NCBI GenBank assembly: GCA_965213675.1
Contig: CBDCAF010000016.1
Location: 8,871-72,870, forward strand
Direction: 5' to 3'
Length of the DNA: 64,000 nt
DNA from: an uncultured Candidatus Binatia bacterium
GTDB taxonomy: Bacteria > Desulfobacterota > Binatia > UBA9968 > JAJDTQ01
Numbering within the stretch: position 1 is the first letter of the stretch; the number at the start of each line of letters is the position of its first letter. A program made the position numbers and the translations under genes. Under the pieces are notes generated by a model. The model saw only the letters and a program-made list of their open reading frames with translations, ran no database searches and was not told where the DNA came from. This document shows, one piece after another, positions 2,689 to 42,653 of this stretch.

Positions 2689-2704
2689 TGCGAATAGGCC
2701 CTCG

Positions 2705-4972: not shown

Positions 4973-4983
4973 GCGCGCCTCGC

Positions 4984-7383: not shown

Positions 7384-7515
7384 GCGGTGAAGGCGTGTCC
7401 GGCGGGCCTGCGTGCGGCCCGCCGCCCGAAGGGAGACACCGATCAAGCCTTTATTCTAGGGGATACCGCGAGTGAATGCAATTTTGCCGGACCGTTCGGG
7501 CGGTTCCGCCGGCTT

Positions 7516-8520
7516 CTAAAGCTCGATCTTCTCCGCGTAGAGTCCCTTGACGAAGCCGCCCTTGTCCAGCCCCTTCAGCGTGTCCAGCTCCATATAGCGC
7601 TGCGGATCAAGTTGGCGCGCGCGCGCATCCGTCACGGCCACCGCGTCGATCAGCGCCTGCACTCCTTCGATGCGCGGGAGCGGCAACGGTTCCAGGCGCT
7701 GGGCGAGCGCGCTGTACGTGCCCGGGAGGGTCGCGCCCTGGGCCAGGGTCACGTACTTGTCGATGATGCGCATGGTGTCGGCGCGTTCCGCCAGGAAGTG
7801 CTGGATGCCGTTGAGGTAGGCCATGAGGAAGCGCCGCAGCTCGTTGGGACGGCGCTCGGCGAAGGAACGGCTGGTCACCAGCAGGTCCGTGGTGAGGTGA
7901 ACCTGCCCGAGGTCGAGCACCTTGATGCCCCAGTGTTGCACCTGTGCCGCCACGTCCGGCACCAGCGGCGCGGCCTGAACCACGTTGCGGAACAGCGCCG
8001 CGGCTCGCTGGGGCGAAAACCCGATGGGCACCATCTCCACGTCTTCCACCGGATTCAGTCCTGCGCGTCTCAGCAGGACCCGCGCGATCAAATCGGACTT
8101 GCGCCCCAGACGCGACACCCCGACCCTCTTGCCCCTGAGCTGCGCGAGGTCGTCGACGTAGGAGGCCACGCCGAAGCGGTAGTGCTCGGGATTCGCGTGG
8201 CCGCCGATGAACACCAGGTCGGCGCCGCCGCTGATGGCCTCCAGCGGCGGCATCACGTCCTCGGAGGCGACGAAGATGTCCATCCCCAAAAGGCTTTGCA
8301 CGCCGCCCGCGGCGGCGCCGTCAATGTACACCGGATCGATATCGAGGCCGTACCTGGCGAAGAGCTCGGTGTCCCTGGCGATCCAGGTGACCACGGTGCC
8401 GGCCCCGAAACCCGCGAACGCAACCCGGACCCTCCTGGAGTCGTCCGCGAAAGAGACGGCAACGCAGGTCAGCGCCGCAACCACCGCTGCCGCAAATACA
8501 TTCAGGAATCGGCAGAACAT
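7516..8520 (-). CDS. ABC transporter substrate-binding protein, NMT1/SsuA-TauA-like
   Basis: Signal peptide MFCRFLNVFAAAVVAALTCVAVSFA and an NMT1-like periplasmic-binding fold sequence. A GGAGGG RBS lies before ATG 8520. Confidence 0.7.
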   Translation of the reverse strand: MFCRFLNVFAAAVVAALTCVAVSFADDSRRVRVAFAGFGAGTVVTWIARDTELFARYGLDIDPVYIDGAAAGGVQSLLGMDIFVASEDVMPPLEAISGGADLVFIGGHANPEHYRFGVASYVDDLAQLRGKRVGVSRLGRKSDLIARVLLRRAGLNPVEDVEMVPIGFSPQRAAALFRNVVQAAPLVPDVAAQVQHWGIKVLDLGQVHLTTDLLVTSRSFAERRPNELRRFLMAYLNGIQHFLAERADTMRIIDKYVTLAQGATLPGTYSALAQRLEPLPLPRIEGVQALIDAVAVTDARARQLDPQRYMELDTLKGLDKGGFVKGLYAEKIEL

Positions 8521-8631
8521 GATCCCCTCCCCGCGGCCGCACACCAGCGGCACACCAGCGCCGACCGCAACGCCATCCTATAGGCAGGAACAGGCACGGT
8601 CAATGCGGGGCGGCGGTCCGGCGTCCAGCCT

Positions 8632-9585
8632 CTATGGTTCGGGCTCCTCCACCAGATCCGCAAGCATTTCGATGAACAGCCGGTGGTCGTTCACCGCGGG
8701 CGCCCGGTGATAAGCCATTCCCAGATCGAGAGCCCGCCCGCGGGCTTCGACGTCGAGGTCGTACAGCACCTCGACGTGATCGCAGACGAAACCGATGGGA
8801 ACCAGGACCACCGCGGTCTCGCCGGCGCGGGCGAGTTCCTCGATCACCACGCACACGTCGGGACCGAGCCAAGGGTCCCTGGGGTTGCCGCTGCGGCTCT
8901 GGTACGCCAACTCCCAACGCGCGCAGCCTGCCTCCTCGGCTACACGCCGTGCGGCTCGGGCGAACTGCTCCGCGTAGGGCGAGACGTCGGCCATGGACCG
9001 GGGAATGCTGTGGGCGGTGAAAATCAATGGCGCGCTCCGAGACGCGGGCGGGAGCGTTTCCAGGGTGGCCGCGACGCAGTCGGCCACCGCGCGGATGAAC
9101 AGGGGATGGTCGGCCCACGGTTCGGCGTACTCCACCACGGGAGCCCGTTCCCCCAATGCCGCGCGCGCGGCCTCCACGCTGTCGATATAGCGGCCCCAGG
9201 ATGCCTCCGTCTGAAAGGCGGACAGAACGATGCCGCGCACGCGCCGGCAGCCGCCGGCCGCGAGCGTCTCCAGTGCTTCGTCCAGGAACGGGCGCCAGTT
9301 GCGCATGCCGACGTGGACGGGCGTGGCGCGGCCGTCCCGCCGGAGCCGTTCGCGCAACCCTCGAGCCTGCCGGCGCGTCAACTCGTTGAGCGGCGAGCGA
9401 CCGCCGATCAGCTCGTAGTGGTGCGCGACCGCTTCAAGGCGCGCCCGCGGAATACCCCGCCCCTCGGTCACACGCTCAAGGAACGGACGTATTTCGCCGG
9501 GATTCTCGGGTCCGCCAAAAGCGATCAGCAGGATCGCATCGAATCGCGTCATGTCGTCGTGGAGAAAAGGTACGAGACGGTGCAC
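8632..9585 (-). CDS. hemH: Ferrochelatase
   Basis: 317 aa. Family-typical N-terminus (AILLIAFGGPE...) and conserved His/Glu-containing regions. Confidence 0.88.
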   Translation of the reverse strand: MHRLVPFLHDDMTRFDAILLIAFGGPENPGEIRPFLERVTEGRGIPRARLEAVAHHYELIGGRSPLNELTRRQARGLRERLRRDGRATPVHVGMRNWRPFLDEALETLAAGGCRRVRGIVLSAFQTEASWGRYIDSVEAARAALGERAPVVEYAEPWADHPLFIRAVADCVAATLETLPPASRSAPLIFTAHSIPRSMADVSPYAEQFARAARRVAEEAGCARWELAYQSRSGNPRDPWLGPDVCVVIEELARAGETAVVLVPIGFVCDHVEVLYDLDVEARGRALDLGMAYHRAPAVNDHRLFIEMLADLVEEPEP

Positions 9586-9775
9586 CGGATTCGGCAGGGA
9601 GCCGATGACCCCGGCATCAAGCTACCCATGTACCAATGCGCCTTACCAATGCGGTTCACCTGAGCGCTTCCACAACAGGCTGTGCGCTTGTGGCGACCGG
9701 ACTTGCCGGTCTTGCCGCATCAACGGGATCACTTGCTACGACGTTATCTTCGAATCGACCGGCTAACACTTTCCG

Positions 9776-10093
9776 CTACCACTCGATGCGGATGCAGAGT
9801 TCCTCTCCGCGTTTCTCCACCGGCAGCACGGTCAGCGGATCGCCGCCCTTGGGCAGCACACACTCCCCGGAGTCGAGGTCGAAACAATAGCCATGGTTGT
9901 CGCAGCGGACCTTGCCCGCGAGGATGGGGCCGTTCATCAGGTCCGCGCTCTCGTGTGGACAGTAGCGCGAAAACGCGAAGTAGTCGTTGTCCAGCCGCGT
10001 CACCACGAGGGCACGCCCGTTCAACTCCACCGCCTTGCGCTCGCCCGGCTCCAGTTCGTCCGCGCGCGCCACCGGTATGTAGGTCACTCCCAC
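9776..10093 (-). CDS. Rieske [2Fe-2S] domain protein
   Basis: CPH...(16)...CxxH (CPHESADL ... CDNHGYCF). GTG start at 10093, 6 nt after a GGAGG RBS. 105 aa. Confidence 0.75.
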   Translation of the reverse strand: MGVTYIPVARADELEPGERKAVELNGRALVVTRLDNDYFAFSRYCPHESADLMNGPILAGKVRCDNHGYCFDLDSGECVLPKGGDPLTVLPVEKRGEELCIRIEW

Positions 10094-10279
10094 GCTCTTC
10101 CTCCGATTTGATTCCCTGCCATGGAGCGCGCAAGGGCGACCGGCCGGCCGCCCTGCACGAGATCCGAACTGCATCAGGAACCGGGTCAGGGAACGGCCCT
10201 GCCGGAGCTTTTCCCGTTCGTCCTGCGCGTGGCTCCGCACCAACGGAGCGACGCGCAGGACGCGCACTCCCCAAAGCCC

Positions 10280-11986
10280 CTAAGCCGCCGCGGCCGAGCT
10301 GGGCGCGTAGCCGGAGCCGCGCAGCACCTGGCCCGGCAGGTCGCCGCTCAGGCGGCCATCCTCGTAGATCACGCCGCCGTTGACGATGGTGTAGTGGATG
10401 CCGTCGGAACGCTGGATCAGGCGCTTGGTGCCGGCCGGGTAGTCCTCCGCCCATTCGGGCTCGTAGGCGCGCACCGTGTCGGGATCGAACAGGGTGAGGT
10501 CCGCGGCGTAGCCCGGCCGGATGAGTCCCCGGCCTTCCAGGCCGTAGACCGAGGCCACGTGGAAAGTGAGCTTGTGCACGGCCTCCTCCAGCGTCATCAG
10601 GCCACGCTCCCGCACCCACAGGCCCAGCAGCGTGGTGCCGTAGCCGAAGTCGGCGCCGTACATCACATGGGCTCCGGCGTCCGAGGTGCCCACCAGCACG
10701 TAGGGGCTGCGCAGGATCTCGCCCATGGCCTGCGCATCGCCGCCGGTGTTGGCGTTCTGAAAGGTGGTGAGCAGCCCCTCGTCCAGCGACAGGTCCAGGA
10801 ACGCATCCACGGGATCCTGATTGCGCATGGCCGCCATGTCCGCCACGCTCTTGCCCTCGTAGCGTTTGTTCTCTTCCTTGACGACCTTCTCCACCTGCAC
10901 GATGTCCCAGCGCCGGTGGAAGTTGGTCATGCGCGTGGTGTTCAGGTCCTCGCGCAGCTTCACGCGGGTGGCCGGATCGGCAAAGGCCTGCTGGCGCACC
11001 TCCACCGGCAGGAACATGATGTTCTTCCAGGTGGGAAACTCGTCGAAGAGCTGCGCGTTCTGCAGGTTGAAATGCCTTACCAGCGGCACGGTCTGGGTCA
11101 AGCCGTAGGCGCGGTAGCCGTCCTGGAAGATGCGCGACACCGCGTCCAGTTGCTCCTGCCACAGCGTGGGCTCGGCCCAGCGGTGATGCACGCTCTGCCA
11201 GATGATGGGCCGCTGGGTCCGGCTGGCCAGGTCGTGATAGATGTCGAAGTGCTCCAGCTTGTTGCGGCCGAGAATGGTCTCGATGATGCCGCTGTTCATC
11301 TCGCCGAGCACGTCGCACAGGGCGTAGAGTTCTTCGTTGTCCGCCAGCCGGCTGGCCACGGGCTTGCCGTCCTCGCGCATGTGGCGCTCGTTGCGGTTGG
11401 TGGAGAACCCCAGCGCGCCCGCGTCCATGGCGCCCCGCACGAGGCGCTTCATGGTCTGCACCTCGGCGGCGGTGGCCTTGCGTTCCACCGACTCCTCGCC
11501 CATGACGTTCTGGCGCACCGCGATGTGCCCCACCAGACCACCGGCGTTGATGCCGAGCCGGCCCTCCAGGGCATCCAGGTACTCGCCGTAGCTGTGCCAG
11601 CCCCAGGTCACGCCCTTCTCCAGGGCGGAACGCGGGATCGCCTCGACCCGCACGAAGCTCTTCACCAGGGCGTCCTCGCCGCCGTCGCTCACCGGCGCCA
11701 GCGCCAGCCCGCAGTTGCCCATGACGATGGAGGTGATGCCGTGCTGCGGCTCGGAGGTGCCGTAGGGGTCCCACAGGATCTGCGCGTCCATGTGGGTGTG
11801 GTGGTCGATGAACCCCGGCGACACCACCAGCCCGGCCGCATCGATGGTGCGGCTGGCCGAACCGTTGAGGCGCCCCACCGCTGCGATCTTGCCATCCTTC
11901 ACGCCCACGTCCGCCGTATGGGACGGCAGCCCCGAACCATCGGCCACGCGCCCGCCGCGTACCAGCAGATCATATTCCATGGACAA
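10280..11986 (-). CDS. Amidohydrolase, N-acyl-D-amino-acid deacylase (D-aminoacylase) family
   Basis: 568 aa. N-terminal YDLLVRGGRVADGSG...SPGFIDHHTHMD metal-binding motif typical of the family. Confidence 0.8.
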   Translation of the reverse strand: MSMEYDLLVRGGRVADGSGLPSHTADVGVKDGKIAAVGRLNGSASRTIDAAGLVVSPGFIDHHTHMDAQILWDPYGTSEPQHGITSIVMGNCGLALAPVSDGGEDALVKSFVRVEAIPRSALEKGVTWGWHSYGEYLDALEGRLGINAGGLVGHIAVRQNVMGEESVERKATAAEVQTMKRLVRGAMDAGALGFSTNRNERHMREDGKPVASRLADNEELYALCDVLGEMNSGIIETILGRNKLEHFDIYHDLASRTQRPIIWQSVHHRWAEPTLWQEQLDAVSRIFQDGYRAYGLTQTVPLVRHFNLQNAQLFDEFPTWKNIMFLPVEVRQQAFADPATRVKLREDLNTTRMTNFHRRWDIVQVEKVVKEENKRYEGKSVADMAAMRNQDPVDAFLDLSLDEGLLTTFQNANTGGDAQAMGEILRSPYVLVGTSDAGAHVMYGADFGYGTTLLGLWVRERGLMTLEEAVHKLTFHVASVYGLEGRGLIRPGYAADLTLFDPDTVRAYEPEWAEDYPAGTKRLIQRSDGIHYTIVNGGVIYEDGRLSGDLPGQVLRGSGYAPSSAAAA

Positions 11987-12132
11987 ATCCTCCTGCGTCC
12001 GAACACCTTGATGTCAGCAGGCCGGGCAATGCCCGGCCCGCGTCATTGCGTCGATGTCTCCAAGCCCGCCCAAGGGCGAACCATGATGGCTTCAGGCCAG
12101 CTCGTCGATGAACAAAGGCGGGGCATCCCGGC

Positions 12133-14364: not shown

Positions 14365-14783
14365 AGTCCGTCGGCCTTCTCCTGAACGTACGGTTGGGCG
14401 TGAGCGTTGGCTACCAGGAGGCCCTGGAAAGATCGCAGAGTCCTGTTCCTCAGCCACTGTCCGTACAGGGCATCGTCGATACAGGTGCCAGTTGCACCTG
14501 TATCGACCCCGGAATCGTCCAGCGGCTTGGTCTGATTCCGGTAGGGAAGCAGAGCATCAGCACACCATCGACGGGTCCGAACCCCATAGAGGTCGACCTC
14601 TATGACGTCAGCTTGGCCATCTTCTCGACAACGCAGGAAGTCCCGTGCTGGATTCCCAATCTGCCTGTCGCCGAATCGCAACTTGATCATCAAGGATTCC
14701 AGGTCCTCATAGGCCGGGATGTCTTATCTCGCTGCATGTTGCTCTACGACGGCAAGAACAGCGTCTATACGCTTTGCTTTTGA
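14340..14783 (+). CDS. Retropepsin-like (clan AA) aspartic protease, stand-alone 147 aa
   Basis: Catalytic IVDTGASCTCID and second signature VLIGRDVL. No signal peptide or TM segment. The size fits a homodimeric retropepsin fold. Confidence 0.7.
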   Translation: MPYFSRRIESVGLLLNVRLGVSVGYQEALERSQSPVPQPLSVQGIVDTGASCTCIDPGIVQRLGLIPVGKQSISTPSTGPNPIEVDLYDVSLAIFSTTQEVPCWIPNLPVAESQLDHQGFQVLIGRDVLSRCMLLYDGKNSVYTLCF

Positions 14784-14847
14784 AGGGTCGCCCTCGCGTC
14801 CAAGCCCGAGAACGTCTCTTTCCGAACTTGAGCGACGGTTGAAAATC

Positions 14848-17265
14848 ATGGACAAGCGGAGCCTCTCGGAACGAGACATCTGCACGAAGTTCATCACACC
14901 TGCCCTGCGTCGAGCCGGGTGGGATGAGATGCTTCAAATCCGCGAAGAGGTGAGCTTCACCAAGGGTCGCATCATCGTCCGCGGCAAGCTGGTGTCACGC
15001 GGGAAAGCCAAGCGCGCCGACTACGTTCTATATTACAAACCCAACCTTCCCCTTGCGGTCATCGAAGCCAAGGACAACTCCCACAGCGTCGGCGGCGGCA
15101 TACAGCAGGCGCTGGACTACGCCGAAACACTGAACGTTCCCTTCGTGTTCTCATCCAACGGCGACGGTTTCCTGTTTCACGACTGCACCGGCAACGCCAA
15201 CCCGCGAGAGACGCACCTCTCGCTGGACGATTTCCCGTCGCCTGACAAGCTGTGGACGCGCTACCGCGCCTGGAAGGCCCTGGGTCCGGAAGCCGAAGGC
15301 CTCGTCCTTCAGGACTACCATGAGGACGGCGGCGACAAGGCGCCTCGGTACTACCAAGTCATCGCAATAAACGCGGCCATTGAGGCCGCTGCCAAGGGGC
15401 TGGATCGCATCCTCTTGGTCATGGCCACCGGCACCGGCAAGACCTACACGGCGTTCCAGATCATCTGGCGCTTGTGGAAGGCCGGACACAGGAAGCGCAT
15501 CCTTTTCCTCGCCGACCGCAACGTGCTCGTCGATCAGACCATGGTGAACGATTTTCGGCCCTTCGGCAGAGCGATGACGAAGCTTTCTACTCAAGCGAAA
15601 ACCATATGGTGCGATGACCACGGCGTGCACCGAGTCGATACGTCCTACGAGATCTATCTGGGTCTTTATCAGGCAATCACCGGGCCGGACGAAAATCAGA
15701 AAATATATCGTGAGTTCTCTCCCGGATTCTTCGACCTGATTGTCATCGACGAATGCCACCGGGGCAGCGCCGACGAGGACTCGGCTTGGCGCGAGATTCT
15801 TGAGTACTTCTCTTCCGCCACCCAGATCGGACTCACCGCGACGCCGAAAGAGACGCGATACGCTTCCAATATCGCGTATTTCGGAGAGCCGGTGTTCTCC
15901 TACTCGTTGAAACAAGGCATCCACGACGGCTTTCTCGCGCCCTACAAGGTGGTCAAGGTTCATATCGACCGCGACGTCGAAGGCTACCGGCCGGAAAAGG
16001 GGAAGCTCGACCGGTATGGCGAGGAAGTCGACGACCACATCTACAACACCAAGGACTTTGACCACACGCTTGTCATCGACGGGCGCACCAACTTGGTGGC
16101 GCGGAAGGTTACGCAGTTCCTGAAGGAGAGCGGAGACCGATTCCAGAAGGCCATGATCTTTTGCGTCGATCAGGAACACGCGGCGCGCATGCGCCAAGGG
16201 CTGATCAACGAGAACGCCGACCTCATGGACGAGAACCCCCGGTACGTCATGCGTATCACCGGCAGCGATGCTGAGGGACAGGCCGAGTTGGGCAACTTCA
16301 TCGATCCGGAATCGAAACACCCCGTTCTTGTCACCACGTCCCGCCTGCTGTCCACGGGCGTGGACGTGCAGACATGTCGGCTCATCGTGCTCGACCGTGA
16401 AGTCGGCTCGATGACCGAATTCAAGCAGATCGTCGGCCGTGGCACCCGCGTGCACGAGGATACCGGCAAGCTTTACTTCACTCTGATCGACTTCCGCGGC
16501 GCGACCAGTCATTTCGCCGATCCGGAGTTCGATGACGAGCCGGTGCAGGTCTACGAGCCCGGGAAGGGCGAGCCCGTCGATCCGCCCGAAGCCACGTTGG
16601 TCCAGTACGATGATACGTTTTCCGAGTCTCCTAAAAACGACCGCGGTGGCACGACGGTCGTAGTTGATGCCAACTTTCCACCCATTGGAGACGGCTCGCG
16701 CAAGAAGATCTATGTCGACGACGTGAGCGCGACCATCGTCGCCGAACGGGTGGAGTATCTTGACGAGCACGGCGGCCTGGTCACCGAGTCGCTTCGCGAT
16801 TTTACCCGGAAGGCACTACGCAAGCGTTTCGCAAGCCTTGACGACTTCCTGAGGCGATGGAACGGTGCCGAGCGCAAACAGGCGATCATCGATGAGATGG
16901 CGGCCGGGGGGTTGCCACTGGCCGTCATCGCCGAGGAGTTGGGCAAGGACCTCGACCCCTTCGACCTCATCTGTCATGTTGCGTTCGATGCGAGACCGCT
17001 GACTCGCCGAGAGCGCGCTGACAACGTCAGGAAACGCGACGTGTTCAGGAAGTACGGAGAACAGGCCCGCACCGTGCTCGATGCGCTGCTCGACAAGTAC
17101 GCCGACGAAGGCGTGTTGGAACTCGACGACACCAACGTGCTCAGAATCCCGCCGATCAACACGCTTGGCACCCCGGTGGAATTGATCGGAGCCTTTGGCG
17201 ACAGGCCCGGGTACCTGCGCGCCGTCCACGACCTGCAGTCATCACTCTACAGGGAGACCGCATAG
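14848..17265 (+). CDS. hsdR: Type I restriction enzyme R subunit (EcoEI/type IB-like C-terminus)
   Basis: N-terminal nuclease motif (ADYVLY...VIEAKD), helicase motifs ATGTGKT and DECHRGS, and an EcoEI_R_C-like tail. Start at MDKRSL (ATG 14848). Confidence 0.92.
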   Translation: MDKRSLSERDICTKFITPALRRAGWDEMLQIREEVSFTKGRIIVRGKLVSRGKAKRADYVLYYKPNLPLAVIEAKDNSHSVGGGIQQALDYAETLNVPFVFSSNGDGFLFHDCTGNANPRETHLSLDDFPSPDKLWTRYRAWKALGPEAEGLVLQDYHEDGGDKAPRYYQVIAINAAIEAAAKGLDRILLVMATGTGKTYTAFQIIWRLWKAGHRKRILFLADRNVLVDQTMVNDFRPFGRAMTKLSTQAKTIWCDDHGVHRVDTSYEIYLGLYQAITGPDENQKIYREFSPGFFDLIVIDECHRGSADEDSAWREILEYFSSATQIGLTATPKETRYASNIAYFGEPVFSYSLKQGIHDGFLAPYKVVKVHIDRDVEGYRPEKGKLDRYGEEVDDHIYNTKDFDHTLVIDGRTNLVARKVTQFLKESGDRFQKAMIFCVDQEHAARMRQGLINENADLMDENPRYVMRITGSDAEGQAELGNFIDPESKHPVLVTTSRLLSTGVDVQTCRLIVLDREVGSMTEFKQIVGRGTRVHEDTGKLYFTLIDFRGATSHFADPEFDDEPVQVYEPGKGEPVDPPEATLVQYDDTFSESPKNDRGGTTVVVDANFPPIGDGSRKKIYVDDVSATIVAERVEYLDEHGGLVTESLRDFTRKALRKRFASLDDFLRRWNGAERKQAIIDEMAAGGLPLAVIAEELGKDLDPFDLICHVAFDARPLTRRERADNVRKRDVFRKYGEQARTVLDALLDKYADEGVLELDDTNVLRIPPINTLGTPVELIGAFGDRPGYLRAVHDLQSSLYRETA

Positions 17266-17268
17266 GAA

Positions 17269-18720
17269 ATGGCCGTCAGCACTCTTGTCAAGACGATTCA
17301 GGACATCATGCGTCAGGACGTGGGTGTCGATGGCGATGCGCAACGCATCAGCCAGTTATGTTGGATGTTCTTCCTCAAGATCATCGACGATCAGGACCGG
17401 GAGCTTGAATTACTGAAGGAATGCTACCGTTCACCTGTTCCCGACCGGGTGCGATGGCGCAACTGGGCCGCCGATCCGGAAGGGATCACCGGGGACGAGT
17501 TGGCGACCTTCATCAACGCGAACCTCTTTCCGGCACTGAAGGAGCTTCCGGCAGGGAACGACCCGCGCGCAAGGGTTGTAAGGGATGTCTTCGAGGACGC
17601 TTTCAACTACATGAAATCCGGCCAGTTGATCCGGCAGGTGGTCAACAAGATCAACGACATCGACTTCAACAATTTCGCCGAGCGTCAGCACTTCGGCGAC
17701 ATCTACGAGCAAATCCTCAACGACCTGCAATCCGCGGGCAATGCCGGGGAGTACTACACCCCGCGCGCGGTCACATCTTTCATGGTGGAGATGGTCGACC
17801 CCAAACCGGGCGAGACGCTGTTCGACCCCGCCTGCGGTACTGGCGGCTTCCTCACTTGCGCCATCCGCCACATGCGCGACCGCTACATCAAGCGACCGGA
17901 AGACGAGGCGCGGATGCATGCATCCCTTCGCGCTATGGAGAAGAAACCGCTGCCGCACATGCTCGCCGTCACCAACATGCTTCTGCACCACATCGAGGAG
18001 CCCTCTTTCCTGCGTCACGACAACACCCTGGCGCGACCCTACGTCTCCTGGGGCCAAGCCCAGCGCGTGGATATCGTGCTGACCAATCCGCCGTTCGGCG
18101 GCAAGGAGGAACCGGGCATCGAGTCCAACTTCCCAACACACTTCCAGACCCGCGAAACGGCCGATCTGTTTCTCGCGCTGATCATCCGCCTTCTCAAGCC
18201 CGGCGGACGGGCCGCGGTGGTGCTGCCCGATGGCTCGCTCTTCGGCGAAGGCGTCAAGACCCGGCTCAAGGAGCATCTGATGGAAGAGTGCAACCTTCAC
18301 ACCATCGTCCGCCTGCCGAACTCGGTGTTCCGCCCCTACGCTTCCATCGGTACAAACCTGTTGTTTTTCGAAAAGGGCGGACCTACGAGGAATGTCTGGT
18401 TCTGGGAGCACCGCGTCCCCGAAGGACAAAAGCACTACTCGATGACCCGGCCCATCCGGCTGGAGCATCTGGCCGACTGTGCCGCGTGGTGGGGCGGAGC
18501 GAAACGCAAGGGCCGCAAGGAAGGCGGCCGTGCATGGAAGGTCACAGCCAAGGAGGTGAATGAGCGCGGCTACAATCTCGACATCAAGAATCCTCAAACC
18601 GAGGGCCCAGACTACGAAGATCCCGAGACACTTCTCGCAGAACTGGAATCCGCAGAGGCCGATGTGACATCGATACGAAACCAGTTGAAGGAAGCCTTGG
18701 CGGAGGCGTTGCTACGATGA
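17269..18720 (+). CDS. hsdM: Type I R-M N6-adenine DNA methyltransferase subunit
   Basis: HsdM N-terminal domain, SAM motif DPACGTGGFL and catalytic NPPFGG. Confidence 0.95.
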   Translation: MAVSTLVKTIQDIMRQDVGVDGDAQRISQLCWMFFLKIIDDQDRELELLKECYRSPVPDRVRWRNWAADPEGITGDELATFINANLFPALKELPAGNDPRARVVRDVFEDAFNYMKSGQLIRQVVNKINDIDFNNFAERQHFGDIYEQILNDLQSAGNAGEYYTPRAVTSFMVEMVDPKPGETLFDPACGTGGFLTCAIRHMRDRYIKRPEDEARMHASLRAMEKKPLPHMLAVTNMLLHHIEEPSFLRHDNTLARPYVSWGQAQRVDIVLTNPPFGGKEEPGIESNFPTHFQTRETADLFLALIIRLLKPGGRAAVVLPDGSLFGEGVKTRLKEHLMEECNLHTIVRLPNSVFRPYASIGTNLLFFEKGGPTRNVWFWEHRVPEGQKHYSMTRPIRLEHLADCAAWWGGAKRKGRKEGGRAWKVTAKEVNERGYNLDIKNPQTEGPDYEDPETLLAELESAEADVTSIRNQLKEALAEALLR

Positions 18721-18765
18721 AATCAAAGAAGGACCACCATCGCCTTCAGCCTGGAAAAGTTGGTC

Positions 18766-19077
18766 ATGCACGCCGCCATCGCTGACAAGAAGGAAAAGTT
18801 GGCGGAACTCTGCCGTCGCCACGGGGTAGCGCGCCTCGAAGTCTTCGGATCCGCCGCGCGCGGCGCTTACTTCGATCTACAGACCAGCGACGTCGACTTC
18901 CTTGTGGAGTTCAACCCCGACGGAGACCTGCGGCCCTTCCACCAATTCTTCGACCTCGCCGACGCCTTGCGCCACACCTTGGGCCGCTCCGTCGATCTCG
19001 TCGAGTCGGGCATCGTCCGCAACCCGTATCTGCGCGCCGCCATAGACCGGTCGCGCGAGGTTGTCTATGAGTCCTGA
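18766..19077 (+). CDS. Nucleotidyltransferase (MNT) antitoxin of a HEPN/MNT module
   Basis: GSAARG...DVDFLV minimal nucleotidyltransferase motifs. Confidence 0.85.
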   Translation: MHAAIADKKEKLAELCRRHGVARLEVFGSAARGAYFDLQTSDVDFLVEFNPDGDLRPFHQFFDLADALRHTLGRSVDLVESGIVRNPYLRAAIDRSREVVYES

Positions 19078-19423
19078 CCGTCGCGTTCTGCTGACGGACA
19101 TCGACCAGGCGGGCGCGGAAATCCAACGCTTCACGCACGGTCTGGACAGCGTTTCCTACGCCGGCGACGCGCTGACTCAAGCCGCGGTCGAACGGAAGTT
19201 CGAGATCATTGGCGAAGCGTTAAACCGCCTTCACAGGGCCCGCCCAGACATCGCCGGTCAGATTCCCTGGTACCGCCGGATGATCGACTTCCGCAACTTG
19301 TTGATCCACGGCTACGCCAGCGTGCTGCCCGAGCGCGTCTGGGACTATACCGACAACCACCTTCCCGACCTGCGTCGGATCGTGCTGGAGATGCTCGCCG
19401 AGTTGGGACCGCCGATGCCATGA
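19067..19423 (+). CDS. HEPN domain (DUF86) toxin
   Basis: RNLLIHGY (Rx4H) HEPN RNase motif. Overlaps the MNT gene by 11 nt and hsdS by ATGA. Confidence 0.85.
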   Translation: MSPDRRVLLTDIDQAGAEIQRFTHGLDSVSYAGDALTQAAVERKFEIIGEALNRLHRARPDIAGQIPWYRRMIDFRNLLIHGYASVLPERVWDYTDNHLPDLRRIVLEMLAELGPPMP

Positions 19424-21153
19424 ACGCCGAACGCTTGCTAGCCCTGTATGATCGGGTGGCGGAAGCGCCCGACGCCATTCCCCGCCTGCGTCGTTTCGTG
19501 CTCGACCTCGCTGTGCGAGGAAGACTGTTGGCGCAGGATCTGGCGGATGAACCGGCAGCGGAGTTGCTCAAGAGAATAGCGGAGGAAAAAGCACGACTGA
19601 GAGTTCGGCACCATGTCAAACCGCTCGCCGCGCAGGAAATCCCGTTTGTTCTTCCTGCGGGTTGGCTTTGGAACCGGCTCGGGGAGCTTTGCACCAAAAC
19701 CGGTTCTGGTAGTACCCCACGCGGTGGCAAAAGCGTATACAAGGACAATGGAATTCTGTTTCTTCGTTCTCAAAATGTGTATGACGACTGCCTGCGACTC
19801 GACGAAGTAGCCCGAATTGAACCTGGCGTTCACGCTCGTATGGCGGGGACCGCTGTCCAACCGAGAGACCTTCTCCTGAACATAACTGGTGGTTCCATGG
19901 GTCGGTGCTGTCGCGTACCTGACGAGTTTGGGAAGGCCAACCTTAACCAGCACGTCGCCATAATCCGCCCAGCAGTTCTCGAAATGGCCGACTTTCTTCA
20001 TAAACTCGTGCTGTCACCCTACTTCCAGTCCTTCATCGTCGATGAACAGACCGGCGCGGGACGCGGTGGCCTCCCGAAGAACAAAATGGATCGGATAGCT
20101 GTCGCGGTCCCACCCCTCGCCGAACAGCATCGCATCGTCGCCAAGGTCGATGAACTCATGACCCTCTGCGACGAATTGGAAGAAGCCCGTGCCACACGCG
20201 CGGAGACCCGCGACCGGCTGACCAAATCTAGTCTTGGCCGCTTGAGTGCACCTGAAGCGGATGATGAGACTCTTCGCTCCCACGCTCGTTTCGCCATCGA
20301 TGCCTTCCCCGCACATACAGCGCGTATCAACCAAATCAAACACCTTCGCCAAGTCATCTTCGACCTCGCCGTGCGAGGCAAACTAGTAGAGCAGGATCCG
20401 GCGGACGAACCGGCGGCGGAGTTGCTGGAACGGATAGCGGTGGAGAAGGCGAGACTGGTGAAGGCGTGCACGACTGGAATGCCGAAAGCTTCGGTACAGG
20501 CTGACTGCGATGATTTGCCGTTTTTTCTTCCCAGAGGTTGGACTTGGACGCAGATCGCAGAACTTGGCTTGATTAGTCCGCGCAATGATTTTGCCGACGA
20601 TCATGTGGCGTCCTTCGTTCCGATGCCTTTGATTCCGCGAGATTGGCGTGCTTCCAATACTCATCAGACTCGCCCGTGGGGCGAGATAAAGAGGGGTTAC
20701 ACTCATTTCGCTGACGGAGACGTTGCGCTGGCGAAGATCACGCCATGCTTTGAGAATGGCAAGTCCGTCGTTTTCCGCGATCTGACAGGTGGCGTCGGGA
20801 GCGGCACGACCGAGCTTCATGTTGTCCGCCCCATCTGTATGGACGCGGACTACATCCTGCTGTTTCTAAAGACCCCATTTTTCATTGAGACTGGCGTCAC
20901 GAGAATGACTGGTACAGCGGGCCAAAAACGCGTGCCAAGAGATCACTTCGCAAACTCACCGTTTCCCCTCCCACCCCTAGCCGAACAGCATCGCATCGTC
21001 GCCAAGGTCGATGAACTCATGACCCTCTGCGACCGTCTGGATACACGTCTTGCTGCAACAGCCTCCGCTCACCAGCGCCTCCTCGAATCTCTGCTTCGGG
21101 AATCACTGGCGCCCACCGCAAATTTACTTGAGGCACTTGAGGAAGCCAAATAA
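19420..21153 (+). CDS. hsdS: Type I R-M specificity subunit
   Basis: Two target-recognition domains, each followed by the identical conserved helix PPLAEQHRIVAKVDELMTLCD. Duplicated N-terminal/central helical regions. Confidence 0.9.
   Translation: MNAERLLALYDRVAEAPDAIPRLRRFVLDLAVRGRLLAQDLADEPAAELLKRIAEEKARLRVRHHVKPLAAQEIPFVLPAGWLWNRLGELCTKTGSGSTPRGGKSVYKDNGILFLRSQNVYDDCLRLDEVARIEPGVHARMAGTAVQPRDLLLNITGGSMGRCCRVPDEFGKANLNQHVAIIRPAVLEMADFLHKLVLSPYFQSFIVDEQTGAGRGGLPKNKMDRIAVAVPPLAEQHRIVAKVDELMTLCDELEEARATRAETRDRLTKSSLGRLSAPEADDETLRSHARFAIDAFPAHTARINQIKHLRQVIFDLAVRGKLVEQDPADEPAAELLERIAVEKARLVKACTTGMPKASVQADCDDLPFFLPRGWTWTQIAELGLISPRNDFADDHVASFVPMPLIPRDWRASNTHQTRPWGEIKRGYTHFADGDVALAKITPCFENGKSVVFRDLTGGVGSGTTELHVVRPICMDADYILLFLKTPFFIETGVTRMTGTAGQKRVPRDHFANSPFPLPPLAEQHRIVAKVDELMTLCDRLDTRLAATASAHQRLLESLLRESLAPTANLLEALEEAK
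20109..20172 (+). repeat. hsdS internal direct repeat, copy 1
   Basis: 64 nt, identical to 20970-21033 except for one mismatch. The last 54 nt are perfect. Confidence 0.95.
20970..21033 (+). repeat. hsdS internal direct repeat, copy 2
   Basis: See copy 1. Encodes the second PPLAEQHRIVAKVDELMTLCD helix. Confidence 0.95.
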
Positions 21154-21460
21154 GCCGTTGCTTCAGATCCTCAACGAGGTGGGTACGTTAACATGCCTCT
21201 GTCGGGTTGACGGCGATGGACGGACGTTCGGTGACCCCCCAAAGGGAACGAGGCATCCGGTACGCGTCGAGGACACGCATGCCACAGAGACTGGAGAGAC
21301 TCCCAAGGGAAGTGTAGCGGACAACTGTAAATGTCCCATTTGTGTCAATCGAAAATGTCCCACATAGAAGATTGCGAGGAGGTGTACGTCGGGCCAGTCT
21401 GTTGGCAAAAGCCAACAGGAATGGCGCGGCGAACCGATGCACGGATGGGAGACAAGGATG

Positions 21461-22642
21461 TTAGGGAAGATCTAAACAAGAGACCTTTCACATGTCATTA
21501 TGGCGAAAACGGCAGGGCATGGAGGGGGAACGATGAGACAGGCGAGCTTCGCGGAGCTGGAACATGATGGGAAGAAGCGTCGGACGCGGCGGGAGGAGTT
21601 TTTGGAGAAGATGGAGGGGCTGATACCGTGGAGGCGTCTGGAGAAGCGGATAGAGGCATTTTAGCCGAAGGCGGGACGTGGACGGCGGCCGGACCCGTTG
21701 GGGGTGATGCTGCGGGTGCACTGTGTGCAGTTGTTCTACAACCTGAGCGACCCTGGGATGGAAGACCTTTTATACGAGGTGGAGTCGGTGCGGCGCTTTG
21801 TGGGGCTGCGGCTTTCGGGACCATTGCCGGACGAGACAACGATCCTGAATTTTCGTCACCTGCTGGAGGAGCACGGACTGGGGGAGAAGCTGTTCGAGGA
21901 GATCAACGCGCACTTGGCCTCGTTGGGGCGGCGGTTGAAGACGGGGACGATCGTGGACGCGAGCATCATCGCGGCGCCGTCATCGACGAAGAACCTCAAG
22001 GGGGAGCGGGACCCTGAGATGCACCAGACGAAGAAGGGGAAGCAGTGGTACTTCGGGATGAAGGCGCATATCGGAGTGGACGCGGAGTCGGGGTTGACAC
22101 ACAGCCTGGAGACGACGCCGGCCAACGTGTCGGACGTGGCGACGGCGCACGCGCTACGGCACGGGGACGAGGAGCAGGTGTGGGGACACGGGCTACCAGG
22201 GGGTGGGCAAGCGTGAGGAGAACCGGGACGCGCAGGTGGACTGGCAGGTGGCGATGAAGCCGGGCCAGCGCCGGAAGCTGGAGAAGATCGGACCGGAAGA
22301 AGCGGCGGAGAAGCGCAAGGCGTCGGTGCGGGCCAAGGTGGAGCATCCCTTTCTGTACGTGAAGCGCCACTTCGGCTACGCCAAGGTGCGCTACCGCGGG
22401 CTGTGGAAGAACACCCAGCGCATCGCCGTACTGCTCGGGTTCACCAATCTGCTCATCGCAGGGCGCTACGCTTGAGGTCCTGAGGCGGGACCGGTCCGCC
22501 CGCTGCGGCAAGGGAGGGCGAAATACCTGCGGTTTGGTCATAAAACGAGGCCCCGGAACCCTTATCCCCGGTCCCGGGGGTTGAACTGTTCGGACGTTTT
22601 CCCCGCGCCCACCAAAATCGAGGTTGTTAAGACTTTCCCTAA
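21461..22642 (+). mobile_element. Decayed IS5-family insertion sequence (about 1.18 kb)
   Basis: Imperfect terminal inverted repeats: TTAGGGAAGATCTAAACAAG (21461-21480) against the reverse complement of 22623-22642, TTAGGGAAAGTCTTAACAAC (16/20). They enclose an IS5-type DDE transposase reading frame. Confidence 0.7.
21533..22475 (+). pseudogene. IS5-family transposase pseudogene
   Basis: In-frame TAG at 21662-21664, where homologues have Tyr (..[13 protein letters not shown]..). A +1 frameshift near 22170-22190 lies just before GDTGYQGV. The C-terminal AKVEHPF...KVRYRGL is typical of IS5. Confidence 0.8.
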
Positions 22643-22667
22643 AGCAGTGGAAAGCCGTGCATAATCG

Positions 22668-22757
22668 GCGTTCCCCGCACACGCGGGGATGAACCGCGGA
22701 AACCGTGTCGCTGAATGAGCCCCGTCCCGTGATCGCCGAACACTCAGGGTGACCCGC
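22668..22757 (+). CRISPR. Vestigial type I-E-like CRISPR: one intact repeat, one 32-nt spacer, one degenerate repeat
   Basis: GCGTTCCCCGCACACGCGGGGATGAACCG (22668-22696) matches the E. coli I-E repeat GAGTTCCCCGCGCCAGCGGGGATAAACCG at 24/29, with the stem conserved. Exactly 32 nt later, 22729-22757 matches the first repeat at 16/29. No cas genes in the window. Confidence 0.55.
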
Positions 22758-22956
22758 CGAAAATGCTGTTAGACACTGATGCCGTTGACAGACACTGTTT
22801 ATTGAGGCGGTCCTGGATGGCAGACGCGGATCGATCAAGCGCTTCAGGAATGGGTCGCGACACATCGCCGCGCGTGATCCTCTGGATCGGCCACCCACTT
22901 CAGCCGGACTCGCCTGCCCGTTTCCGGCGCCATAGACACCAGGCACAGGAGCAATC

Positions 22957-25173
22957 ATGGATCTCAAGGTCGTAGGGCAACCGGTAGGGCGCGTAGAGGG
23001 TCCGGACAAGGTTTCCGGGCGGATGGTGTACACGGCGGACGTGGACGTGCCGGAAGCGCTGTGGGGCAAGTGCTTGCGCAGCACGCTGGCGCATGCACGG
23101 CTAGTGCGGGTGGACGCATCGCGGGCGCGGCAGGTGCCGGGGGTGCGGGCGGTGCTGACGGGGGCGGACGTGCCGGATTTCCGCGTGGGCGTGAGCCTGC
23201 AGGATCTGCCGGTGCTGGCGCGGGACAAAGTACGCTTCATCGGCGACAAGATCGCGGCGGTGGCCGCGGACACCCTCGACGCGGCGGAGGAAGCGCTGGG
23301 GCTCATCAAGGTGGAATACGAAGAGTTGCCCGCGGCGGCGGACATTGAGGAGGCTCTCGCCGACGGGGCTCCGGTGATCCACGAGGAGCTGGCGGACTAT
23401 GCGGGCGTTCCCGGCCGGCCGGAAGAACGGCCCAACGCGCTTTCTCTCAAAGAGCACACAGCCGGCGATGCGGCGCGGGGGATGGCGGAGGCGGAGGTGG
23501 TCGTGGAGCACACCTTTCGCACGCCGGGGGTGCACCAGGTCTACCTGGAGCCCCACGCCACGGTGGTGTCGGCGGCGGACGACGGGCGCATCGACGTATG
23601 GGCGTCGTGCAAGGCGCCGTTCCGGCTCAAGCAGATGCTGGCGGCGCAACTGGCGTTGGAAGAGGCGAACATCCACGTGCATGGCGTGGCCCTGGGTGGA
23701 GACTTCGGCGGCAAGGGCTCCCAGATGGACGTGCCGGTCTGTTACTACCTCGCCAAGGCCGCGGGGCGCCCGGTGAGGATGGTGATGAACTACACCGAGG
23801 AGTTGATGGCCGGCGACCCGCGCCACGGCTCGGTGATGCGCGTCAAGCTCGGGGCGAAGCGCGACGGCGCCCTGGTGGCCCTGGACAGCGACATCGACTT
23901 CGACAGCGGCGCCTACTCGGGCTTCAAGCCCTCGGAAATCGACGGCACGTTCATCGTCAATGCCTACCGTATCCCCCACTACGCCATCCGCACGCGCAAC
24001 GTCTACACCAACAGCGTGCCCGGCGGCTACATGAAGTCGCCGGGGCAGCCTCAGACCGTGTTCGCCATCGAGTCGCTGCTGGACATGCTGGCGCGGAAAC
24101 TCGACATGGACCCGGTGGCGCTCCGGCTGAAGAACCTGATGCAGGACGGCGACACGTTGCCCAACAAGCGCGGCATGCAGAAGATCCGCTGCCGCGAAAC
24201 CATCGAGGCCGCGCTCGAGGCGGCGGGCTGGAACGACGTTCCCGCCAGCCCGGACACCGGCCGGGGCATGGCCCTCTCCTTTCGCCACACCGGCGGCAGC
24301 GGCACCGTGAACCTGGAGCTGACCTGCGACGCCAGCGGCGGGGTCACGGTGCTCACCGCCATCCCCGACATCGGCACCGGCACGCATACCTTGCTGCGCC
24401 AGATCACCGCGGAGATGCTGACCTTGCCGGCGGACCGGGTGCAGGTGGCGCGCGGCGACACCGATACCTTTGACACCGATGCCGAACCCGGCGGCAGCAA
24501 GATCACCGCCATGGTGGGGCGCGGCCTGGTGGAAGCGGTGGAGGAGCTGCGCCACCGGATGACGGAGGCCGCCGCCCAGGCCCTCGGCTGCCGGCCCGAG
24601 GCGGTGACCCTGGCGGACGGCCGCTTCAGCGCCAGCGGCGCGGCCCTGGCCTTCGCCGACGTGGCCGGAAAACTCATCGCCGAAGACAAGGCGCTGTCGG
24701 TGCACAAGTCCTACCGGCCCGAGCGCTCGCCCGTGCCGGCGTTCTTCGTGCAAGTGGCAGAGGTCGCGGTGGACCGGGAGACCGGCGTCGTGGACGTGAA
24801 GAAAGTGGTGACCGCCCACGACGTCGGCACGATCATCAACCCCCTGGGCCACCAGGGACAGATCGACGGCGGCTTCGTGCAGGGGCTGGGCTACGCGGTC
24901 ATGGAGGAGATGGTCAAGGACGGGCCGCGGGTCACCACCCTCAACCTCGGCGACTACTGCGTGCCGTGCGTGAAGGACCTGCCGCAGCTCGAGACCGTGC
25001 TGGTGGAGGACCAGACCGGCCCCGGTCCCTACAACGCCAAGGCCATTGGGGAAATGAGCATCGTGCCCACGGCCCCGGCCATCGCCAACGCGGTGGAGGC
25101 CGCGGTGGGGATACGCATTCTCGATCTGCCCATCACGGCGGAGAAGGTGTTCAACGCGTTGCGGGACAGGTGA
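22957..25173 (+). CDS. Xanthine dehydrogenase/aldehyde oxidase family molybdopterin-binding large subunit (CoxL-like)
   Basis: 738 aa. The N-terminus VGQPVGRVEGPDKVSGRMVYTADV is typical of the family, with a/b-hammerhead and MoCo-binding domains throughout. Confidence 0.85.
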   Translation: MDLKVVGQPVGRVEGPDKVSGRMVYTADVDVPEALWGKCLRSTLAHARLVRVDASRARQVPGVRAVLTGADVPDFRVGVSLQDLPVLARDKVRFIGDKIAAVAADTLDAAEEALGLIKVEYEELPAAADIEEALADGAPVIHEELADYAGVPGRPEERPNALSLKEHTAGDAARGMAEAEVVVEHTFRTPGVHQVYLEPHATVVSAADDGRIDVWASCKAPFRLKQMLAAQLALEEANIHVHGVALGGDFGGKGSQMDVPVCYYLAKAAGRPVRMVMNYTEELMAGDPRHGSVMRVKLGAKRDGALVALDSDIDFDSGAYSGFKPSEIDGTFIVNAYRIPHYAIRTRNVYTNSVPGGYMKSPGQPQTVFAIESLLDMLARKLDMDPVALRLKNLMQDGDTLPNKRGMQKIRCRETIEAALEAAGWNDVPASPDTGRGMALSFRHTGGSGTVNLELTCDASGGVTVLTAIPDIGTGTHTLLRQITAEMLTLPADRVQVARGDTDTFDTDAEPGGSKITAMVGRGLVEAVEELRHRMTEAAAQALGCRPEAVTLADGRFSASGAALAFADVAGKLIAEDKALSVHKSYRPERSPVPAFFVQVAEVAVDRETGVVDVKKVVTAHDVGTIINPLGHQGQIDGGFVQGLGYAVMEEMVKDGPRVTTLNLGDYCVPCVKDLPQLETVLVEDQTGPGPYNAKAIGEMSIVPTAPAIANAVEAAVGIRILDLPITAEKVFNALRDR

Positions 25174-26097: not shown

Positions 26098-26949
26098 ATG
26101 ATCCACGTTGTCGGAATCGTCGCGAAGTACGGAGAGGAGAAGGCCGAGACGATCATGCGCGGGACCATACCGTGGCTGGAGGGCCGCGGCATGGAGGTGC
26201 TCGTCGAGGCGGAGTACGGCGCCGTGGGCGGAAACGTCGCGCGCAAGGGGGAGATGGCCGAACGCGCCGACCTGATCGTCGTCCTGGGCGGAGATGGCAC
26301 GCTCCTGAGCATTGCCCGGCTGGTGGAACGGCCCGAGGTGCCCGTGGTGGGCGTGAACCTCGGGGGCCTCGGCTTCATTACCGAAATCGCGCTGGACGAA
26401 CTCGAAGAAGTCCTCACGAGCACCATCGCTGAGAACTACACCATCGAGAAACGCATGACCTTGCAGGTCAGCATCGAAGGCCAGGACGGCGTCCAGCACC
26501 TCCGTATCCTCAACGACGCGGTCATCACCAAGGGCGCCCGTTCCAAGATCATCAATCTGGAAACCTACGTCGGCAGCGATTACCTGTGCACCTACCGGGC
26601 CGACGGACTCATCATCTCCACGCCCACGGGATCGACGGCGTATTCGCTGGCCGCGGGAGGCCCGATTCTTCATCCGGCCATGAGCGCCATCATCCTCTGT
26701 CCCATCTGCCCGCACACGCTGACCACCAACCGGCCCATCGTCATCGCCAGCGACGCGCGCATCCGATCCACCCTGAGATCGTCCGGAGACACCGTCATCC
26801 TGATCCCCGACGGTCAGGAGGGAATCCTGTTGAACAACGGCGACCGCGTAGAGGTGCGCCGGCACAAGTCGCCGGTGTCGCTCGTGCGTATTCCCACGCG
26901 GTCGTATTTCGACGTACTCCGCAACAAACTCAAGTGGGGAGAGCGCTAG
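26098..26949 (+). CDS. nadK: NAD(+) kinase
   Basis: GGDGTLL motif and the NadK C-terminal domain (STPTGSTAYSLAAGGPI). The stop codon TAG lies inside the CTAG that bounds the adjacent MITE. Confidence 0.9.
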   Translation: MIHVVGIVAKYGEEKAETIMRGTIPWLEGRGMEVLVEAEYGAVGGNVARKGEMAERADLIVVLGGDGTLLSIARLVERPEVPVVGVNLGGLGFITEIALDELEEVLTSTIAENYTIEKRMTLQVSIEGQDGVQHLRILNDAVITKGARSKIINLETYVGSDYLCTYRADGLIISTPTGSTAYSLAAGGPILHPAMSAIILCPICPHTLTTNRPIVIASDARIRSTLRSSGDTVILIPDGQEGILLNNGDRVEVRRHKSPVSLVRIPTRSYFDVLRNKLKWGER

Positions 26950-27109
26950 TGTGGTGTCTGGTTAATTCGCGTCATAATCTGCGGAGGATTTTTTGTTGTC
27001 GGCAAGGCGCGATGACGAGCAGTGGCGGGTACCACGCGAGGAAGAGCAACGCAGCCGACGGCGAATAAGACCCGCAGATTATGCGCGAATTAACCAGACA
27101 CCACACTAG
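26946..27109. mobile_element. 164-bp MITE with 38/39-bp terminal inverted repeats, bounded by CTAG
   Basis: CTAGTGTGGTGTCTGGTTAATTCGCGTCATAATCTGCGG (26946-26984) against the inverted copy at 27072-27109 (one 1-nt indel). No coding capacity. Confidence 0.8.
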
Positions 27110-42387: not shown

Positions 42388-42428
42388 GACCTGTGTCCCG
42401 TCCGGTCAGCCAGGAGACGGGCTCCCGA

Positions 42429-42589
42429 GGAGCCTGTCGGGATTATCGAATCGTAGCGAGAGGCAGAGAAATGGAGGCCAGTTTCGGGCGGATTTGAGGA
42501 GAATATTGGTAATATTGGACGAAAATCCAACCGGAAATGGACCCATTTCGCTGCCTCGCAGTAGATTCTTGATAAACCCGACAGGCTCC
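42429..42589. repeat. 161-bp palindromic MITE-like element or long hairpin
   Basis: 13-bp perfect termini GGAGCCTGTCGGG / CCCGACAGGCTCC, extended by imperfect arms of about 50 bp around an AT-richer core (AATATTGGTAATATTGG). Core motifs recur at 52068-52170. Confidence 0.5.
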
Positions 42590-42653
42590 TGGGAATTTGC
42601 GCCGCAGGAATACGGCGTCCTGAGCGTAGCGAAGCGAAGTCGAAGAACGCGGC

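Follow-up and report, generated by a model that had tools for sequence, protein, structure and literature searches.

A single 29-nt sequence of the kind that forms type I-E CRISPR repeats lies beside the debris of insertion sequences (IS) in a stretch of 64,000 nt from an uncultured Candidatus Binatia bacterium (hereafter, the window), and it raises the question of whether such a sequence belongs to an array that still works, to the cargo of a mobile element, to an unrelated family of palindromes, or to a CRISPR-Cas locus that has been lost. It appears that the last of these is correct, and we put at approx. 0.87 the probability that the sequence belongs to the trailer end of a former type I-E array, now a stump without function. 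The window corresponds to positions 8871-72870 of contig C17 in an assembly (G000; 4.53 Mb, 21 contigs) that consists of a closed 3.97-Mb chromosome (C1) and haplotigs of a second strain, with the window among the haplotigs. Contig C17 aligns at 99% identity with C1:3908727-3971147 and 1553-7482, and most of the other small contigs align with parts of C1 at 97-99%. The contamination estimate of 8% is explained by these second-strain haplotigs; because the assembly is a mixture of two strains, any statement below that something is absent from the genome applies to the mixture. The stump and its immediate neighbourhood comprise the following features:

21313-21460, plus strand: left end of an IS21-family element, with TG..., two AAATGTCCCA terminal repeats, the 5' UTR, and the istA start codon
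21465-22638, plus strand: IS5-family pseudogene, with DUF772 and DDE_Tnp_1 split over three frames
22643-22667, plus strand: 25 nt separating the repeat from the IS5 flank, AGCAGTGGAAAGCCGTGCATAATCG, probably a truncated spacer of which the 3' part (21-25 nt) is left
22668-22696, plus strand: intact type I-E CRISPR repeat, GCGTTCCCCGCACACGCGGGGATGAACCG, 29 nt, single copy in the assembly
22697-22728, plus strand: single complete spacer, CGGAAACCGTGTCGCTGAATGAGCCCCGTCCC, 32 nt, the usual I-E spacer length in congeners
22729-22757, plus strand: probable degenerate terminal (trailer-end) repeat, GTGATCGCCGAACACTCAGGGTGACCCGC, 16/29, hairpin lost, in exact 61-nt register
22758-22807, plus strand: 50-nt trailer, which extends to the right edge of the strain-specific block
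22808-22877, plus strand: 3' end of a brnA antitoxin gene (residues 64-85 and stop; last 22 codons), with the right breakpoint of the block inside the gene

The intact, I-E-like repeat of 29 nt that the original prediction had recognised is present at 22668-22696. When one genome per species was scanned for exact matches, GCGTTCCCCGCACACGCGGGGATGAACCG was found over all 29 positions at 65 loci in other genomes, distributed among Alpha- and Gammaproteobacteria, Acidobacteria, Binatia, and other taxa; most of these loci are long arrays in which up to 124 copies recur every 61 nt. Within the genus, four of the 27 other genomes have arrays of GCGTTCCCCGCACACGCGGGGATGAACCG or of a variant with two positions changed, and one such array, which contains the identical 29 nt, adjoins the I-E cas operon of a congener (G006, described below). 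The form of the sequence is also that of an I-E repeat (28-29 nt, a GC-rich 7-bp stem, a 4-nt loop, and the 3' ...AACCG handle), and its predicted RNA fold has a free energy of -14.3 kcal/mol (z = -3.2). Agreement with the E. coli K-12 I-E repeat is 24/29, as counted by hand against the consensus. None of 100 dinucleotide-preserving shuffles of the window contained a match to GCGTTCCCCGCACACGCGGGGATGAACCG at three or fewer mismatches. An Rfam scan of 22400-23000 at a loose threshold returned noise only, with the CRISPR repeat families unmatched. Throughout the 4.53-Mb assembly, GCGTTCCCCGCACACGCGGGGATGAACCG occurs once, even when up to six mismatches are allowed; therefore, it does not belong to a dispersed family of the REP type, with many copies in the genome, which had been named as the alternative that would speak against a CRISPR origin.

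The second 29-mer, which was said to start after exactly 32 nt and to match the first at 16 positions, was found at 22729-22757 with the same register and score, so that two repeats with a spacer of approx. 32 nt and a 61-nt period are present, in degenerate form only. In this GC-rich window, a score of 16/29 is reached by 0.19% of positions. The matches between GTGATCGCCGAACACTCAGGGTGACCCGC and GCGTTCCCCGCACACGCGGGGATGAACCG comprise 15/21 positions in the 5' part and 1/8 in the 3' part; this split was set post hoc, after the data had been seen, and 15/21 is reached by 7e-5 (0.007%) of positions. Several trailer-end repeats of the same family in other genomes have likewise kept the 5' part and lost the 3' part. 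The hairpin is absent from GTGATCGCCGAACACTCAGGGTGACCCGC, which folds no better than its shuffles, and an exact 24-mer of it had no match in 185,579 species genomes; a relative sharing this array end was not found. It should be noted that the hairpin at the right end of the IS5-family element (CCTTATCCCCGGTCCCGGGGGTTGAACTG, window 22560-22588, 108 nt upstream) also reaches 16/29 against the CRISPR repeat. The resemblance is due to chance and indicates that GC-rich palindromes readily mimic a degenerate repeat in this DNA. Because of this look-alike inside the IS5 end, we regard the identification of GTGATCGCCGAACACTCAGGGTGACCCGC as the second repeat as well supported but not proven.

A protospacer, for which the original prediction had suggested searching viromes and plasmids, was not found in phage records or in viral and metagenome contigs. 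The best blastn match of the 32-nt CGGAAACCGTGTCGCTGAATGAGCCCCGTCCC to phage records was 19/20 nt with E = 3, i.e., at the level of chance, and its central 24-mer had no exact match in either viral or metagenome contigs. When the spacer, the partial spacer, and the trailer were compared by blastn-short with their own genome, the G006 cas operon, and approx. 90 fetched loci, only chance words of 12-14 nt were returned, and self-targeting and anti-cas readings were therefore rejected for the sequences tested. Given the lack of matches to CGGAAACCGTGTCGCTGAATGAGCCCCGTCCC in the phage, viral, metagenome, own-genome, and G006 cas searches, there is no basis for proposing a target or an anti-cas role for it. 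The trailer (22758-22807) was also unmatched in the genus, its own genome, and the fetched loci.

One proposal that fared less well concerns the 25 nt upstream of the intact repeat, which had been interpreted as a leader interrupted by the IS. The leaders of approx. 30 GCGTTCCCCGCACACGCGGGGATGAACCG arrays, including those of four congeners, end in ...AAGA or ...AAGT and have conserved GGTAG and TTTGACA blocks; in comparison with these leaders, AGCAGTGGAAAGCCGTGCATAATCG has neither of the two ends and neither of the two blocks, and its interpretation as a leader was rejected for want of any likeness to the leader ends. The 60 nt upstream of the repeat are thus made up of the IS5 end and 25 nt unlike the known leaders, and no promoter-like site was detected in window 22400-23000. 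Since the upstream sequence has no leader features and no promoter-like site, the repeat at 22668-22696 was internal in its array. It is more likely, as judged by sequence comparison, that AGCAGTGGAAAGCCGTGCATAATCG is a truncated spacer and, hence, that the surviving piece represents the trailer end of the array. The first four nucleotides (AGCA, 22643-46) are the next four of istA that would be expected beyond the IS5 insertion site, and the following 21 nt (22647-22667) were unmatched elsewhere in the genome or in the fetched loci. A continuation of istA across the whole of AGCAGTGGAAAGCCGTGCATAATCG was considered and rejected, as the remainder is only approx. 40% identical; the agreement of the first four nucleotides is a hint for the position of a deletion junction only.

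The absence of cas genes that had been reported for the 64 kb extends, for type I-E, to the whole assembly: searches of the window and of the remaining sequence detected none of the I-E cas genes. A tblastn search of the 4.5-Mb assembly with seven Cas proteins of G006 as queries (Cas2 not included) yielded only a weak Cas3 match at another CRISPR locus. The Pfam profiles for Cse1, Cas7e, and Cas6e also had no match in the assembly; because these profiles were silent in an E. coli control as well, which limits their sensitivity, it is the tblastn search with congener proteins that carries the weight. Matches to Cas1 and Cas3_HD were confined to the locus at C1:1.57 Mb, which is of a III-B/I-G-like type. 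The gene set of a functional I-E system (cas3, cse1, cse2, cas7e, cas5e, cas6e, cas1, and cas2) was thus not found in an assembly that is 97.7% complete and in which the window's strain is represented by haplotigs. As this strain is known only from haplotigs, an unseen I-E operon elsewhere in it is conceivable, and such an operon could have escaped assembly or binning. The resident CRISPR-Cas locus (C1:1555000-1579750) combines a III-B module (cmr2-6) with an I-G-like module (cas3 with a C-terminal HD domain and a cas4-cas1 fusion), and its array has 66 repeats of 36 nt, GATTCCGAGGCGTGATTGCCTCGGCCTCATTGAAGC, which are unrelated to the I-E repeat. The last repeat of this resident array is cut at C1:1579604 by the same IS21 end that is present at window 21313-21460.

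What the locus may once have looked like is indicated by G006 (record OZ243984.1, 'uncultured Candidatus Binatia bacterium'), which belongs to the same genus as the window. Its flanks are collinear with the window on both sides (window 1435-12038 and from 22954 onward; by tblastx, with 40 kb from the start of the window compared with 42 kb of G006), and between them lie a brnA-like gene, an I-E cas operon, a leader, an array, and a higBA-like pair, followed by the ortholog of the CoxL-like gene found at 22957 in the window. The operon comprises cas3 (HD and helicase), cse1, an ORF without a Pfam match at the cse2 position, cas7e, cas5e, cas6e, cas1, and cas2. The array contains 14-15 repeats, 13 of which are identical to GCGTTCCCCGCACACGCGGGGATGAACCG over 29 nt and one of which has a single change, and it has the same orientation toward the CoxL-like gene as the stump. 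Syntenic flanks and shared orientation therefore place a complete I-E locus with an identical repeat in the slot of the stump. The original prediction would be refuted, by its own terms, if the repeat and cas genes were missing from the rest of the genome and relatives also lacked an array at this site; G006 has both the I-E operon and the array there. In G006 itself, the cas2 gene (minus strand, G006:C1:3326900-3327300) has an in-frame TAG, at a position that we take to be a tryptophan in E. coli Cas2, and the array includes a duplicated unit pair with abnormal spacers of 14 and 34 nt. Judging from these lesions, the full I-E locus of G006 may itself be decaying.

Correspondence of position is not the same as common descent. 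The right junction differs between the two loci, with a higBA-like pair in G006 and a truncated brnA in the window, and G006 is not the closest congener: the identity of its CoxL to that of the window is 84%, compared with 91-92% for G012 and G026. These two closer relatives carry the two-base variant of the repeat, whereas G006 has the exact repeat. Moreover, among the congeners with I-E arrays, only G006 has one at the slot between the amidohydrolase and CoxL-like genes; the I-E arrays of G012, G005, and G026 are located elsewhere in the genome or on another contig. Because the right junctions differ and G006 is not the closest congener, the two loci need not share descent at this slot, which may instead be a hotspot that was hit independently in G006 and in the lineage of the window.

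The immediate surroundings of the stump are those of a variable site. The stump lies in a strain-specific block of 8.4 kb (window 14385-22807) that is not present in the sister strain (C1) and that sits in the variable defence slot between the amidohydrolase and CoxL-like genes. The block contains a retropepsin-like gene and a type I restriction-modification (R-M) system with an MNT/HepT pair (hsdR, hsdM, the MNT/HepT pair, and hsdS), together with the IS debris and the stump, so that the R-M genes and the relic share a single block; its GC content is 55-62%, as opposed to 65-70% in the flanks. Relatives of the R-M genes with 75-77% identity occur at other sites in genomes of the order, never next to a stump. 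The corresponding slot of the sister strain (C1:3952240-3954500) is 2.2 kb long and holds a BrnT fragment, a miniature inverted-repeat element (MITE), DnaJ-like and RNase H-like genes, and an intact BrnT-BrnA pair. The brnA remnant to the right of the block is 99% identical to C1 from position 3952309 onward, where the same CoxL-like gene follows a complete BrnT-BrnA pair. The order BrnT-BrnA-CoxL, with all three genes whole, recurs in G012, G022, G020, and G026 and is therefore the common arrangement in the genus. The block with its stump has taken the place of brnT and most of brnA. The R-M island may have replaced the cas operon, as the original prediction suggested, or the block may have arrived with the array already decayed. 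Divergence between the strains, considered as a possible sign of imported DNA, is mildly raised in the left flank (1.2-2.4%, compared with 0.2-0.6%) and not raised in the right. A DUF5678 gene is common to both strains, and its retropepsin-like partner is found only in the strain of the window. The MITE, of approx. 165 bp with ends CTAGTGTGGTGTCTGGTTAA..., is present at window 26946-27109 and 42428-42590 and at C17:74503-74670, and has well over 100 copies in the genome, one of which lies in the sister strain's version of the slot.

The IS debris to the left of the stump bears on how the rest of the array could have been lost. The IS21 left end breaks off after the ATG region of istA; it is 98% identical to C1:1579604-1579751, where the sequence runs into an istA-like frame, and a fuller copy (C1:3373020-3369500) encodes HTH and rve domains (weak Pfam matches, below the curated cut-off) and pieces of IstB_IS21. 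The IS5 pseudogene, the ends of which were set by comparison with copies in C1, lies within this IS21 left end, directly after the istA start codon. Its reading frame is broken by a TAG codon at 21662-64 and a frameshift near 22190, and its flanks read TTAG on the left (21461-64) and CTAA on the right (22639-42). With the IS5 body ending at 22638 and CTAA following it, the gap to the repeat is 25-29 nt, which agrees with the 26 bp given previously. In the assembly, this type of IS5 was encountered only as fragments or deletion derivatives, never as an intact copy. A second composite of an IS21 left end and IS5 is located at C1:216779-216075 (89% identical, with a clean CTAG/CTAG duplication and an internally deleted IS5); relative to this copy, the composite in the window has a 15-nt deletion on the left and CTAA on the right. 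The mismatch between TTAG and CTAA was considered as proof of recombination between two IS5 copies and rejected, since the left flank is explained by the 15-nt deletion and the right CTAA is one base off the expected CTAG. As the left flank of IS5 is an IS21 end and not array sequence, a simple insertion of IS5 does not suffice, and a further deletion is required. In G012, the I-E array (G012:C1:2317472-2319631) is halved by an insert of approx. 2.1 kb inside a spacer, the ends of which are IS21-like (...CAATCGAAAACTGCACAC). Thus, IS21-family elements in or at CRISPR arrays are known from three separate cases in the genus, i.e., the window, the resident array, and G012.

The order of events and the mechanism of deletion that we infer are as follows. 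The cas operon, the leader, and the remainder of the array would have been lost by a deletion that ran from istA, 4 nt past the site where IS5 had long before inserted into an IS21-family element, to a point inside a spacer; this deletion would have removed the rest of the IS21 element and the array up to its last repeat-spacer units. From left to right, the survivors would be the last 21-25 nt of a spacer, the intact repeat, the 32-nt spacer, the decayed terminal repeat, and the 50-nt trailer. The core of the original prediction, namely that a former I-E locus was destroyed and left a fossil array, agrees with these results: the repeat is genuine, its cognate cas genes were not found in the assembly, and a relative has the full locus at the corresponding site. 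In type I-E systems, crRNA maturation requires that Cas6e bind and cut the hairpin of the repeat located 3' of each spacer. A canonical crRNA is not expected from the stump, because Cas6e was not found, a leader and a promoter-like site are absent, and GTGATCGCCGAACACTCAGGGTGACCCGC has no hairpin. The cut spacer is followed by a hairpin and lacks the 5' handle before it.

The same observations weigh against a mini-array that remains at work. The original prediction had allowed for a one-spacer array served in trans, by an I-E cas operon located elsewhere in the strain or transferred from a congener. In favour of this, congeners with full I-E systems have the very repeat that stands intact upstream of the spacer, the strain of the window is only partly assembled, and E. 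coli orphan arrays, according to the summary of Almendros et al. 2016 in PMC8616872, act together with incoming cas genes. Nonetheless, such service is very unlikely here: no I-E cas gene, and hence no Cas6e, was found in 4.5 Mb, the stump has neither a leader nor a promoter-like site, the spacer is unmatched in the G006 cas genes and in everything else searched, and, with no hairpin left in the repeat that follows the spacer, Cas6e would have no site at which to generate the normal crRNA 3' end. A related and highly speculative idea, to which we assign only a slight chance, is that the stump has been kept since it becomes active whenever the cell acquires an I-E cas operon whose repeat is the same; operons with a GCGTTCCCCGCACACGCGGGGATGAACCG-type repeat are carried by several congeners. 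If this were true, the intact repeat and neighbouring spacer could be loaded into the incoming Cas proteins, leading to interference or priming against the carrier or to titration of Cas6e, and the stump would correspond, with its one unit, to the anti-cas orphan arrays known from E. coli. Viruses and plasmids are also known to carry mini-arrays or solitary repeat units in which one spacer lies between a full and a truncated repeat (PMC8616872). The stump has this form, and the strain-specific block around it is lower in GC and contains mobile R-M genes and IS debris, yet it is very improbable that the stump serves as mobile-element cargo that exploits or jams the CRISPR-Cas system of a host. 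Carriage by a virus or plasmid and a targeting spacer were not found: genes of phages or plasmids are absent from the block, the host has no Cas machinery to match, the spacer has no target in phage records, viral contigs, or metagenome contigs, and the R-M block occurs in relatives without the relic. In addition, a truncated spacer before the full repeat suggests a cut array rather than a designed unit.

Two further alternatives question whether the stump is what it seems. GC-rich hairpins are common in this DNA, as illustrated by the look-alike in the IS5 end, and a chance resemblance or a REP-like family of non-CRISPR palindromes could be invoked on these grounds; the probability of this is next to nil, given the identity over 29/29 positions to a repeat that forms long arrays of 61-nt period at 65 loci, its single copy in its own genome, the failure of shuffles to reproduce it, and the full array at the syntenic site of G006. 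A chimera, in which unrelated DNA was joined across repeated IS5 sequence during assembly, is suggested by the presence of IS5 fragments at several places in the genome and by the mixture of two strains. We consider this hardly probable, as the other IS5 copies are short and only 81-97% identical, and the unique sequence at 22643-22807 joins the relic to a brnA/CoxL flank that is 99% identical to the sister strain. Even a misjoin at IS5 would leave the repeat-spacer-repeat unit real. We therefore retain the interpretation of the locus as the non-functional trailer end of a former I-E array.

By itself, such a relic carries little weight, and its value lies in marking the turnover of defence systems at one chromosomal slot. 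The amidohydrolase/CoxL slot has held three gene sets: I-E CRISPR-Cas in G006, BrnTA with further genes in the sister strain, and R-M with MNT/HepT in the window. The sample contains two strains side by side that differ at the slot, and IS elements mark the breakpoints. It is a clean, small example of defence turnover at a hotspot in a little-studied, uncultured phylum.

Compared with the only full I-E locus known at the same slot, that of G006, the window has the identical 29-nt repeat, spacers of the same class (32-33 nt), and the same orientation between the amidohydrolase and CoxL-like genes. It differs in that G006 has eight cas genes, a leader ending in ...AAGA, 14-15 repeats, and a trailer that joins a higBA-like pair, and the terminal repeat and spacers of G006 have nothing in common with those of the window. 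Loci disrupted by IS are documented in Shigella CRISPR-Cas (Chen et al. 2019, as cited in PMC8616872); as in the window, an IS lies at the breakpoint, but the IS5 of the window is flanked on its left by an IS21 end and not by array sequence. The mini-arrays of viruses resemble the stump in form; however, the stump is on no recognisable virus or plasmid, has no matching Cas proteins and no identified target, and is preceded by a cut spacer. Isolated CRISPRs were counted in large numbers in one survey and are regarded as possible remnants (PMC5294841). The closest parallel is provided by E. coli lineages without I-F cas genes, which, as far as the account in PMC8616872 goes, keep a small orphan array (CRISPR4; Almendros et al. 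2010, 2016). Like the stump, this array has genuine repeats of its subtype, very few spacers, and no cognate cas genes, and relatives keep the full locus at the same site. The E. coli arrays, however, have kept the leader, are expressed, and contain anti-cas spacers, whereas the stump has lost its leader, its terminal repeat is decayed, and its spacer matches no cas gene; with the leader gone and the terminal repeat decayed, expression and processing are not expected. The stump is a further case, in Binatia, of the well-documented orphan and decayed arrays, and it is more decayed than the E. coli examples.
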